Of a DNA stretch of 64,000 nt, positions 41,148-41,926 are shown in pieces. The notes beneath the pieces are model-generated. The model had not been told where the DNA came from, did no database searches, and was given only the letters and a program-made list of their open reading frames with translations. How positions within the stretch are numbered: position 1 is the first letter of the stretch; the number at the start of each line of letters is the position of its first letter. The DNA lies in NCBI GenBank assembly GCA_963528625.1, contig CAURVQ010000005.1, positions 1 through 64,000 on the forward strand, read 5' to 3'. A program made the translations under genes and the position numbers. The stretch comes from an uncultured Leptotrichiaceae bacterium. GTDB lineage: Bacteria > Fusobacteriota > Fusobacteriia > Fusobacteriales > Leptotrichiaceae.

Positions 41148-41184
41148 TCAAAAAAAAAATCATAATATATTAAAAATTATGATT
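41148..41184 (-). terminator. Rho-independent terminator at the 3' end of the toxN-like gene
   Basis: aatcataat / attatgatt 9-bp stem with 9-nt loop, followed by U10 on the minus strand. Overlaps the stop codon by 1 nt. Confidence 0.65.
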
Positions 41185-41633
41185 TACTTTATTTCTAACT
41201 CTGTATGAAAATATTGTAATGCACTTTTTTGAACGATCTCTTTATTTCTTAAAATATCTAATCTAGTTAATGCTTTTTTATATGTTTTAACATATGATAA
41301 CATCTTTTTTTCTATATATTTCCTATTTTTATCTAATTTTAAATATTCTATTTGATTAATTTTAACTTGATACTTTGAAATATAATTAAAATCTGTAATT
41401 ATAACAGCTTTAGTAAAATCTAATCCTTTATTTTTACCATTTTCATTCATAGTTATATATGAAAATTTATGTTTTATATTACTTCTAATAGGAATTGCAA
41501 ATGTTAATCCCTTATATTCAACTAAATGAACAATATAAGGTCTTTTTGGTTTATATAATATTTCTACACATTTATTATATTTTTTATAAAATTGCTCCGT
41601 CAAGCAATAAAATTCTATACTTTTATTTCTCAT
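41184..41633 (-). CDS. ToxN/AbiQ-like type III toxin (endoribonuclease) candidate
   Basis: 149 aa, basic. N-terminal pattern SIEFYCL..FYKKY...RPYIVHLVEYKGLTFAIPIRS resembles the ToxN/AbiQ MKFY...Y...G...ApLtS core (from memory). RBS AAGGGGA 7 nt upstream. Preceded by tandem repeats plus a terminator, the canonical type III TA layout. Confidence 0.55.
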   Translation of the reverse strand: MRNKSIEFYCLTEQFYKKYNKCVEILYKPKRPYIVHLVEYKGLTFAIPIRSNIKHKFSYITMNENGKNKGLDFTKAVIITDFNYISKYQVKINQIEYLKLDKNRKYIEKKMLSYVKTYKKALTRLDILRNKEIVQKSALQYFHTELEIK

Positions 41634-41655
41634 TTTAATTTCCCCTTTTAAATAA

Positions 41656-41683
41656 AAAAGATTGCCAATTACAACAATCTTTT
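41656..41683 (-). terminator. Intrinsic terminator-like hairpin between the repeat array and the toxN-like ORF
   Basis: aaaagattg / caatctttt 9-bp perfect stem, 10-nt loop, followed by a U-rich stretch on the minus strand running into the toxin RBS. Confidence 0.6.
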
Positions 41684-41687
41684 ATTT

Positions 41688-41793
41688 CATTATATACTTC
41701 TTTATTTTAACTTACTCGCTATACTACGAGTACATCATCTATTTATATACTTCTTTATTTTAACTTACTCGCTATACTACGAGTACATCATCT
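41688..41793 (-). ncRNA. Two tandem 53-nt direct repeats: candidate ToxI-like RNA antitoxin
   Basis: Units 41688-41740 and 41741-41793 are identical over 50 of 53 nt (tatatacttctttattttaacttactcgctatactacgagtacatcatct). A degenerate partial third unit follows. Positioned between the promoter and the terminator upstream of the toxin ORF. Confidence 0.6.
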
Positions 41794-41800
41794 TAATTAT

Positions 41801-41828
41801 ATTATACTTATTTTCTATTTATTGTCAA
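41801..41828 (-). promoter_or_regulatory. Near-consensus sigma70 promoter (TTGACA-N16-TATAAT) firing into the repeat array
   Basis: Minus-strand TTGACA (plus 41823-41828) and TATAAT (plus 41801-41806). Predicted TSS ~41793, coincident with the repeat array edge. Confidence 0.55.
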
Positions 41829-41926
41829 GTAATTTTATTAATTATTTTTTAATTTTTTAATATACAAAACTTTTTCTAAACATGGTATAATGAAATAGAA
41901 AATAATTTTTAGAAAGGAATTAAAAA

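Follow-up and report, generated by a model that had tools for sequence, protein, structure and literature searches.

In published tenpIN loci the repeat is 39-57 nt long (mean 50.9) and occurs in 1.9-3.0 copies, about 2.2 overall (Blower 2012, PMC3401426). The TenpIN locus of P. luminescens TT01 has been shown experimentally to be a toxin-antitoxin and abortive-infection system, and in E. coli it brought the efficiency of plating of coliphages down to about 10^-9 (PMC3401426). It is the one TenpIN locus for which abortive infection has been demonstrated, with E. coli as the host (PMC3401426). An anti-phage role is not universal in type III systems, as the cptIN loci that were tested gave no phage resistance (PMC3401426). 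The tenpI RNA contains an A-rich tract and has been proposed to fold into an H-type pseudoknot (Nadig et al. 2025, PMC12283969), and the repeats in that 2025 survey of tenpIN loci were curated by hand. Fusobacteria were already known as tenpIN hosts (PMC3401426, PMC12283969).

The window analysed here, a stretch of 64,000 nt of DNA, carries a complete type III toxin-antitoxin layout on its minus strand at 41150-41828: a promoter, two repeats, a hairpin with a U-run, a ribosome binding site, a 149-aa open reading frame (ORF) and a second hairpin. The original prediction had recognised a type III system in the canonical order of promoter, repeats, terminator and toxin, and every element was found on that strand, with coordinates that agree to within a few bases with those it had given. 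The locus is very probably a complete TenpIN-family operon that acts through the RNA-antitoxin mechanism proposed below. The predicted kinship with ToxN/AbiQ was wrong at the level of family: Pfam and PADLOC gave no matches, and the ORF matches the NCBIfam model of the TenpIN toxin along its whole length and above the threshold. The 53-nt repeat had also been taken as a possible sign of a new family. This does not stand, because 53 nt and 2.1 copies lie inside the published tenpIN ranges (PMC3401426) and are canonical rather than novel. The family is already known and the locus is an ordinary TenpIN member, with no mechanism unusual for the family and no departure from the TenpIN definition.

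Operon anatomy and the TenpN toxin

A sigma-70-type promoter, TTGACA-N16-TATAAT, lies at 41801..41828 on the minus strand (read from 41828 to 41801) and would presumably drive tenpI-tenpN. It had been predicted as near-consensus and matches the consensus at 12 of 12 positions, the sole perfect match within 40900-42100; weaker promoter-like matches are frequent in the same AT-rich DNA, with 19 observed against 14.7 expected. The promoter is conserved in all strain contigs, and related loci have a promoter-like site in the matching relative position.

Between the repeats and the toxin gene, a hairpin with a U-run occupies 41651..41683 (minus strand). When folded, its stem at 41656-41683 forms 12 pairs including G-U (-9.4 kcal/mol, z -3.6) and is followed by U6, so that the terminator-like hairpin and U-tail of the original prediction are present, with a stem longer than the 9 bp it had proposed. 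Strain variants of this hairpin carry G-U to A-U changes that preserve pairing, and nearly all related loci have a hairpin and U-run in the equivalent position. A consensus terminator scanner returned no sites at the locus because it demands at least three G-C pairs, and the stems were assessed by folding instead. The hairpin presumably acts as a leaky intrinsic terminator, by which the ratio of antitoxin to toxin would be set. A single promoter 5' of the repeats and a putative rho-independent terminator before the toxin gene are both part of the TenpIN definition, and both are found here in the sequence.

A ribosome binding site, AAGGGGA, lies at 41641..41647 (minus strand), 7 nt 5' of the ATG of tenpN. 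The gene occupies 41184..41633 on the same strand and encodes a protein of 149 aa that is basic, as predicted (pI 9.76; 31 K+R against 14 D+E). A weak, A-U-rich hairpin with U10 at 41150..41185 (minus strand) overlaps the tenpN stop codon and probably ends the operon, 180 nt short of nrdD on its upstream side. Its folded stem of 10 bp (one C-G, the rest A-U) closes a 9-nt loop and is conserved among strains. The original prediction of a strong terminator at this place was right about the hairpin and the U-run but overstated the strength, which is -6.7 kcal/mol with a z of only -1.4.

TenpN matched NCBIfam NF047358.1, 'TenpIN family toxin', with an E of 6.4e-39 and 133.4 bits (cut-off 90), residues 11-146 covering profile positions 1-141 of 141. 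A Pfam scan of the ORF found no family at E<=10, including ToxN_toxin (PF13958), and a PADLOC scan matched no model. The profile comparison suggested with the original prediction was therefore negative for ToxN_toxin and positive for TenpIN. A tblastn search gave 35.8% identity (E 8e-10, 96% coverage) to the tenpIN toxin of Y. pseudotuberculosis IP31758 p153kb, a locus among the founding tenpIN loci in the 2012 table (PMC3401426). A Fusobacterium homologue carries the RefSeq name 'type III toxin-antitoxin system TenpIN family toxin', and the repeats belong to a curated Rfam family; the description of the module as unannotated is doubtful as a general claim. The closest named relative of TenpN is on a Leptotrichia wadei plasmid (65%). 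The best relative in a scan of genome contigs, also from Leptotrichia, reached 61%, and none was close. An alignment of 13 homologues, each only 44-66% identical to the window TenpN, has 25 invariant columns.

An AlphaFold (AF2) model of TenpN had a pLDDT of 92. Its top five Foldseek matches in the PDB, 4ATO, 4RMO, 4GLK, 2XD0 and 7D8O, are all type III toxins (ToxN, CptN and AbiQ), followed by MazF. TM-scores were 0.68 for 4ATO, 0.65 for 4GLK, 0.54 for 2XD0 and 0.52 for 7D8O, with 12-15% identity to ToxN/AbiQ in the structural alignments. The model points to the ToxN-like endoribonuclease fold expected of a TenpIN toxin. The N-terminal likeness to the ToxN/AbiQ core noted in the original prediction thus holds for the predicted fold but not for the sequence. 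Searching PDB sequences with the single sequence produced nothing but noise, and neither this search nor a profile search found a ToxN or AbiQ match. Among solved toxins, only CptN (4RMO) could be linked by sequence, through a weak profile match (E 0.3). In that alignment RPY pairs with RPH and AIPIRS with MIPLSS, and R50-S51-N52 of TenpN stand at the position of the CptN triad, which is Ser-Ser-Arg (PMC4627078). Sequence and fold searches of the PDB found no TenpIN complex structure, and the stoichiometry and catalytic residues are therefore putative.

The TenpI repeats and Rfam 6A

Tandem Repeats Finder (TRF) reported a period of 53 with 2.1 copies and 95% matches at 41689-41802. Two 51-nt copies, at 41690-41740 and 41743-41793, are 100% identical, in agreement with the two near-identical 53-nt direct repeats of the original prediction. 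The degenerate partial third repeat proposed alongside them exists merely as a short remnant (AGAUUGUUG against AGAUGAUG); the start AGAUUGUUG overlaps and forms the 5' arm of the middle hairpin. TenpI repeat 1 lies at 41738..41790 and TenpI repeat 2 at 41685..41737, both on the minus strand. Both pass the gathering score of Rfam RF02925 (6A RNA), at 46.9 against 41.2 bits over model positions 1-52 of 52. They score 56.1 and 58.1 bits, respectively, with a covariance model of our own, which gave 173 matches in 100 sources, all on the toxin strand. No Rfam ToxI match was found in the region at E<=10.

In repeat 1, stem 1 pairs 41785-41780 with 41771-41766 (UACUCG/CGAGUA), the pseudoknot stem pairs 41777-41773 with 41749-41745 (GUAUA/UAUAU), and the A-rich linker spans 41765-41750. 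In repeat 2, stem 1 pairs 41732-41727 with 41718-41713 and the pseudoknot stem pairs 41724-41720 with 41696-41692, again on the minus strand. The original prediction had left the pseudoknot to covariation analysis across homologues, and both helices are supported. For stem 1, the alignment of homologous loci contains compensatory changes at 7 of 7 pairs, and 91.8% of cells are paired. The pseudoknot was judged by comparing cognate with non-cognate tails, single-register pair counting being unsuitable. At least 4 bp form between loop position 3 and the repeat's own tail in all 70 of 70 distinct repeats, against 26% with non-cognate tails and 20% with shuffled tails, and this loop-to-tail pairing spans eight different loop classes. 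In a single-register alignment only 59% of pseudoknot cells appear paired, because the 5-bp class is out of step with the 4-bp class by one column. Covariation thus supports a hairpin and a loop-to-tail pseudoknot flanking the A-rich linker. The linker is conserved across repeats. The pseudoknot with an A-rich tract that belongs to the TenpIN definition is found at this locus.

Rfam types RF02925 as 'Gene; sRNA' without a stated function, and its model covers the hairpin only; the 6A RNA was reportedly described by Weinberg et al. in 2017. In 12 of 20 genome loci, Rfam 6A directly precedes tenpN on the strand of that gene, and these 12 span Fusobacteriota, Spirochaetota, Firmicutes and Proteobacteria. 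Overall, dozens of loci from several phyla have 6A RNA just 5' of tenpN, on the same strand as the gene and no more than about 150 nt from it. This position in many loci, together with the covarying pseudoknot, indicates that Rfam 6A is the antitoxin RNA, TenpI, of TenpIN systems. No paper linking 6A to TenpI or to an antitoxin was found in the literature searched. The correspondence would allow a function to be assigned to an orphan Rfam family, which also gains a covariation-supported pseudoknot, and TenpI arrays could then be annotated automatically with the existing covariance model.

Proposed mechanism, strain context and alternative readings

By analogy with P. luminescens TenpIN, ToxIN and CptIN, the single strong promoter would give a transcript of the two 53-nt TenpI repeats. 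The hairpin and U-run would stop most transcripts and let a minority read on into tenpN, leaving the RNA antitoxin in excess over the toxin. TenpN, as a ToxN-fold endoribonuclease, would release 53-nt units from the repeat transcript by cutting at its conserved junctions (...A-A-N-N-G-A/U-G-A-U...). Each unit would be an H-type pseudoknot with a 6-bp stem 1, a 5-bp stem 2 formed by the hairpin loop with the 3' tail, and the A-rich linker running along stem 1, and would bind TenpN and keep the toxin inactive in a closed ribonucleoprotein. If transcription stopped or the RNA was degraded, for example during phage infection, the labile RNA would be lost, and free TenpN would cleave cellular and phage RNA, resulting in growth arrest or abortive infection.

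The module adjoins nrdD, directly upstream of it, in 18 of 18 strain contigs examined, where the locus is intact with 98.9-100% DNA identity. The GC content of tenpN is 19%, against 27% for its neighbours. In strains with nrdG at 92.6% and nrdD at 94.6% identity, tenpN DNA is 99.8% identical, and a near-identical gene amid flanks that diverge by 5-7% is a hint that the module was recently exchanged within the species. Look-ups of the exact NrdG and TenpN proteins gave only module-carrying contigs and no empty site, and a search of the plasmid collection with NrdD (best match 56%, Ilyobacter) revealed no empty nrdD-pepF site. The acquired islet of the original prediction is thus favoured by the low GC content and by DNA more conserved than its flanks, and opposed by the constant position next to nrdD and the lack of an empty site among these contigs. 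An apparent divergent host (L070; TenpN 93%, NrdD 50%) was rejected: it is this same locus, frameshifted at homopolymers in an error-prone long-read assembly.

A decayed remnant, in which toxin activity has been lost and the sequence drifts neutrally, is improbable. The R-S-N that replaces the Ser-Ser-Arg of CptN could be read in this way, as could the single repeat of some metagenomic strains (L118, L127 and L128), but the ORF is unbroken and spans the family model in full, its invariant columns persist among distant homologues, and tenpN is better conserved than nrdG and nrdD. The promoter, ribosome binding site and hairpin are likewise intact, and changes in the hairpin preserve pairing. 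It is more improbable still that the repeats are an independent trans-acting sRNA or a cis-regulatory leader rather than an antitoxin, with the ORF coding for a small basic protein that has nothing to do with them. The Rfam typing would permit this, and in viral contigs 24 of 52 loci with a 6A-type unit, about half, have no TenpN gene nearby, so the RNA can exist alone. It is opposed by the close, same-strand linkage of the RNA to TenpN across phyla, by an architecture that matches experimentally validated type III loci (PMC3401426), and by the predicted ToxN fold of the ORF. The tandem repeats, moreover, share a conserved junction motif that is retained even past the last of them.

A functional TenpIN operon could instead be kept beside nrdDG in a non-defence role, serving selfish addiction or stabilisation or else a stress response, and this is possible though rather doubtful. 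Defence islets are usually variably present, and the fixation of this module in all strains seen is as compatible with addiction or stabilisation as with defence; many TenpN homologues, in addition, are borne on small plasmids. The phage resistance conferred by P. luminescens TenpIN, with an efficiency of plating as low as about 10^-9 against coliphages (PMC3401426), speaks against a non-defence role, as do the homologues present in phage and prophage contigs. The toxin-less TenpI-like units of viral contigs resemble counter-defence, which implies phage pressure on the TenpIN family. TenpIN modules are probable anti-phage suicide systems.

One solitary 6A/TenpI unit directly follows a tRNA, and several head a conserved phage gene module; a blastn search with an orphan 6A unit found no match among cultured phage genomes. 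The pseudo-ToxI of phage PhiTE lets that phage escape ToxIN abortive infection, and by analogy the toxin-less viral units may be antitoxin mimics of the same kind. That 6A is the TenpI antitoxin, that its toxin-less viral copies are phage mimics neutralising host TenpN, and that the window locus is one side of an arms race is, taken as a whole, a tentative proposal. The viral units are nevertheless a testable lead towards a possible RNA-mimic defence against TenpIN.

Relation to known type III systems

The hairpin and A-rich tail of Rfam 6A are present in the window repeats. Rfam lists an sRNA gene with the hairpin alone, whereas the window and related loci add linkage to tenpN and a covarying pseudoknot. 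ToxIN (P. atrosepticum, B. thuringiensis and E. coli) and AbiQ/antiQ (Lactococcus) share the predicted fold and the operon logic, but their repeats are about 35-36 nt long (family range 31-62, mean 38) and present in 2.8-5.6 copies, typically 3-5.5, against 53 nt and 2.1 in the window. Membership of ToxIN/AbiQ is ruled out by the lack of a PF13958 match or a PADLOC model for the ORF, and by repeat length and copy number.

CptIN of Eubacterium rectale (4RMO; PMC4627078) supplies the second-best fold match to the modelled TenpN, and its CptI antitoxin likewise forms a pseudoknot, whose A-rich tract packs against stem 1 (PMC4627078). It differs in having no significant sequence match (E 0.3) and in its Ser-Ser-Arg triad, which is not conserved as such in the window TenpN. 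The 53-nt repeat is also outside the 40-48 nt of cptI (PMC3401426), and this length and the E of 0.3 in the profile match rule out membership of CptIN.

TenpIN itself agrees with the window locus in the full-length match of the toxin to the family profile, in the order of promoter, repeats, terminator and toxin, in repeat length and copy number (53 nt, 2.1 copies, within the family ranges), and in an A-rich tract with an H-type pseudoknot. The differences are that the window TenpN is only about 33-36% identical to proteobacterial members, that the locus is chromosomal and adjoins nrdDG, and that its repeats do not differ from each other, as many E. coli tenpI repeats do. The window adds one correctly identified toxin-antitoxin/defence module in a low-GC gut anaerobe, probably one of the Fusobacteriota, and leaves the understanding of type III systems unchanged.

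A canonical TenpIN locus between nrdDG and pepF

The minus-strand module between nrdDG and pepF is a real TenpIN type III toxin-antitoxin locus, intact and canonical in form. Both the type III class and the order of elements given in the original prediction were upheld: promoter, repeats, hairpin with U-run, ribosome binding site, ORF and second hairpin are all present. The promoter described as near-consensus, TTGACA-N16-TATAAT (41828..41801), matches the consensus at 12/12 positions and is the top-scoring one of the region; weaker promoter-like matches are abundant in the AT-rich DNA around the locus (19 observed vs 14.7 expected). 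An 11/12 match within the 5' part of tenpN (TTGACG-N18-TATAAT, 41574-41603, minus strand) is probably a chance occurrence in such DNA. Two near-identical direct repeats of 53 nt were confirmed at 41689-41802 by Tandem Repeats Finder (period 53, 2.1 copies, 95% matches); their 51-nt cores (41690-41740 and 41743-41793) do not differ. As proposed, a terminator-like hairpin (41656-41683; 12 pairs, -9.4 kcal/mol, z -3.6) with a U6 tail precedes the ribosome binding site AAGGGGA and the tenpN ORF, which encodes 149 aa from the ATG at 41633 to 41184. The hairpin 3' of tenpN had been called a strong terminator, which is an overstatement because the stem is A-U-rich (a single C-G pair) and of low stability (-6.7 kcal/mol, z -1.4), though it carries a U10 tail.

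The TenpN protein is basic (pI 9.76; 31 lysine and arginine vs 14 aspartate and glutamate residues). Its proposed ToxN/AbiQ assignment was not borne out at sequence level, as a Pfam search returned zero matches at E<=10, ToxN_toxin included; none of the PADLOC models matched either. The ORF instead matched NCBIfam NF047358.1 ('type III toxin-antitoxin system TenpIN family toxin') over all 141 profile positions (E 6.4e-39, 133.4 bits; curated cut-off 90 bits), and also phrog_8049 (E 4.9e-29). By tblastn it was linked, with 35.8% identity over 96% of the protein (E 8e-10), to p153kb of Yersinia pseudotuberculosis IP31758, whose locus belongs to the original set of 25 tenpIN loci (Blower et al. 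2012, PMC3401426). Among named relatives, a Leptotrichia wadei plasmid carries the nearest (64.9%, tblastn), and a Fusobacterium homologue, WP_336016708.1, is labelled TenpIN family toxin in RefSeq.

An AlphaFold2 model of TenpN, made with 13 homologues as input (pLDDT 92, pTM 0.87), was compared with the PDB. The top five fold matches were solved type III toxins, namely ToxN of B. thuringiensis (4ATO, TM 0.68), CptN (4RMO), AbiQ (4GLK) and ToxN of P. atrosepticum (2XD0) and E. coli (7D8O), with MazF toxins next. At the sequence level, the only trace to these solved toxins was a weak profile match to CptN (E 0.3), which pairs RPY of TenpN with RPH and AIPIRS with MIPLSS. In that alignment the CptN catalytic triad Ser-Ser-Arg (PMC4627078) falls on R50-S51-N52 of TenpN, so any assignment of catalytic residues here is putative.

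The repeat length had been read as a sign of novelty because it was compared only with ToxI, antiQ and CptI. In the tenpIN family, repeats measure 39-57 nt (mean 50.9) in 1.9-3.0 copies (mean 2.2), toxins average 164 aa, and Fusobacteria are among the main hosts (Blower et al. 2012, PMC3401426); a 53-nt repeat in 2.1 copies with a 149-aa toxin is therefore a textbook fit. A 2025 survey lists 722 TenpN homologues, fusobacterial ones included (Nadig et al., PMC12283969).

The TenpI repeat and the 6A RNA

In Rfam, both repeats of the window reached 46.9 bits over their full length against RF02925 ('6A RNA'), above its curated threshold of 41.2. Of 20 genome loci retrieved via the toxin, 12 had an Rfam 6A hit directly 5' of tenpN and in the same orientation; they come from Leptotrichia, Fusobacterium, Treponema, Sphaerochaeta, Clostridia and Proteobacteria. 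With these hits as input, a covariance model picked up 173 copies across the window and 99 loci; every copy shares the strand of the toxin, and almost all lie no further than ~150 nt 5' of its gene. No further copies were found elsewhere in the 64-kb window with Rfam or this model. Judged by sequence and position, RF02925, which Rfam types only as an sRNA gene, corresponds to the antitoxin repeat TenpI in TenpIN loci of several phyla (41685-41790 in the window; L001-L017 among the fetched loci). The probable source of the 6A family is Weinberg 2017. Its main text (PMC5737381) does not name 6A, and in the literature searched, this main text included, no paper tying 6A or RF02925 to antitoxins or TenpI was found. 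What goes beyond prior description is only the 6A-TenpI link, together with the orphan phage copies.

The suggested check for a pseudoknot and covariation gave a positive answer. Stem 1 occurs as 35 different sequences among 72 distinct repeats, with compensatory changes at 7/7 pairs and 91.8% of cells paired. In a second helix, starting at the G of a conserved UAG, the hairpin loop pairs with the 3' tail past an A-rich linker. At least four contiguous loop-tail pairs were formed with the repeat's own tail in 70/70 usable distinct repeats, vs 26% with tails of other loop classes and 20% with shuffled tails, over eight loop classes (GAGC/GCUC, GAGU/ACUC, GGGC, GAAC/GUUC, GGAC/GUCC, GUAUA/UAUAC, GUGUA/UACAC and GGGU). 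The window repeats have UACUCG/CGAGUA in stem 1 and GUAUA/UAUAU in the pseudoknot; the first repeat of contig L070 has UAUAC, so that the pseudoknot G-U becomes G-C. The predicted fold matches what Nadig et al. 2025 (PMC12283969) proposed for tenpI through manual inspection, an H-type pseudoknot with an A-tract, and is now supported by covariation. The junction motif ...G-A/U-G-A-U... is kept in many loci also after the last repeat, against the terminator, as expected if a putative processing site lies inside it.

By analogy with ToxIN, CptIN and the P. luminescens TenpIN, the promoter would transcribe the repeat array, with the leaky hairpin restricting read-through into tenpN; TenpN would cut the array into 53-nt pseudoknots, which would bind TenpN and keep it inactive within a closed ribonucleoprotein, and loss of the labile RNA would free the RNase. 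Characterised type III systems and work on ToxIN activation suggest that such loss would likely follow host transcription shut-off in infection.

One TenpIN sub-clade, with GAGGGUA as its hairpin loop, has another TenpI-like array 3' of tenpN and a terminator after it (L005:462-562; L009:1699-1801; L020:360-461; L079-L081; L084; L086:2041-2141; L087:1966-2067). No second TenpN homologue or toxin gene follows these arrays, giving the order antitoxin-toxin-antitoxin. A tandem glycine riboswitch was also observed in the window (56929-57179, minus strand; aptamers of 49.7 and 47.3 bits, gathering score 32).

Genomic setting and strain variation

In 18/18 metagenomic contigs encoding an identical TenpN or an identical NrdG, the module is immediately 5' of nrdD and in the same orientation. 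The variable side is that of pepF. There, in many strains, an additional cassette of ~3.3 kb separates pepF from the tenpIN promoter, with its junction ~40 nt 5' of the -35 hexamer. Its genes are those for an Rrf2 regulator, a zinc alcohol dehydrogenase and an alpha/beta hydrolase, along with a 99-aa ORF. It occurs among strain contigs L111-L118, L125 and L127, the last two also with rve transposase fragments, and is absent from the window, L113, L119-L122 and L128. This cassette is the truly variable segment at the locus.

The view of the module as an acquired islet is supported only indirectly. In its favour, GC is 19.1% in tenpN vs 26.5-26.7% in pepF and nrdD, and no close TenpN homologue was found in the species-representative genome collection. 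Also in its favour, tenpN DNA is 99.8% identical between strains L111-L118 and the window, vs 92.6-95.3% for nrdG and 94.6-97.0% for nrdD; this points to an exchange of the module between strains of the species in recent times, or else to unusual constraint. Against it, no empty site was found among the 18 contigs. Three strain contigs (L118, L127 and L128) have one TenpI repeat, not two, which is either a genuine polymorphism in copy number or a collapse in assembly. Where the terminator hairpin differs between strains, its pairing is kept. The best match of NrdD in the annotated collection was from Ilyobacter (56%). L070 (BNJT01000807.1, a 1.65-Mb contig) was rejected as a divergent host, being the same tenpIN-nrdD locus with many homopolymer frameshifts, which account for its apparent identities of 93% for TenpN and 50% for NrdD.

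Toxin-less 6A units in viral contigs

IMG/VR viral contigs (L129-L180) were searched with the RNA-only pattern GTAGAGC-N15-19-AAAGAAAGCTCA, giving 52 loci. A TenpN gene lies immediately 3' of the unit in 26 of these, and in 24 none was detected in the entire fetched locus with a broadened HMM. The covariance model matched 23 of the other 26 loci, and all 17 toxin-less units scanned with Rfam exceeded the 6A threshold (49-68 bits). Examples are L137:8103-8153, L141:10563-10613, L169:6820-6870 (minus strand) and L131:627-677 (minus strand). The units are mostly single copy and keep stem 1 via differing sequences. Their surroundings are those of phages: one lies 3' of a tRNA (L169), and in nine loci the unit heads a conserved phage gene module. 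Further Rfam motifs of the sRNA or cis-regulatory type, FuFi-1, skipping-rope, DUF3800-I and GP20-b (L151), were seen within a few kb of 6A/TenpI units (coordinates listed: L004:1976-2743; L161:10126-11364; L145:9371-9441; L131:1485-1595).

Phage PhiTE carries a pseudo-ToxI that acts as an antitoxin mimic. The toxin-less phage 6A units resemble it and, as a lead rather than a conclusion, are candidate phage antitoxin mimics.
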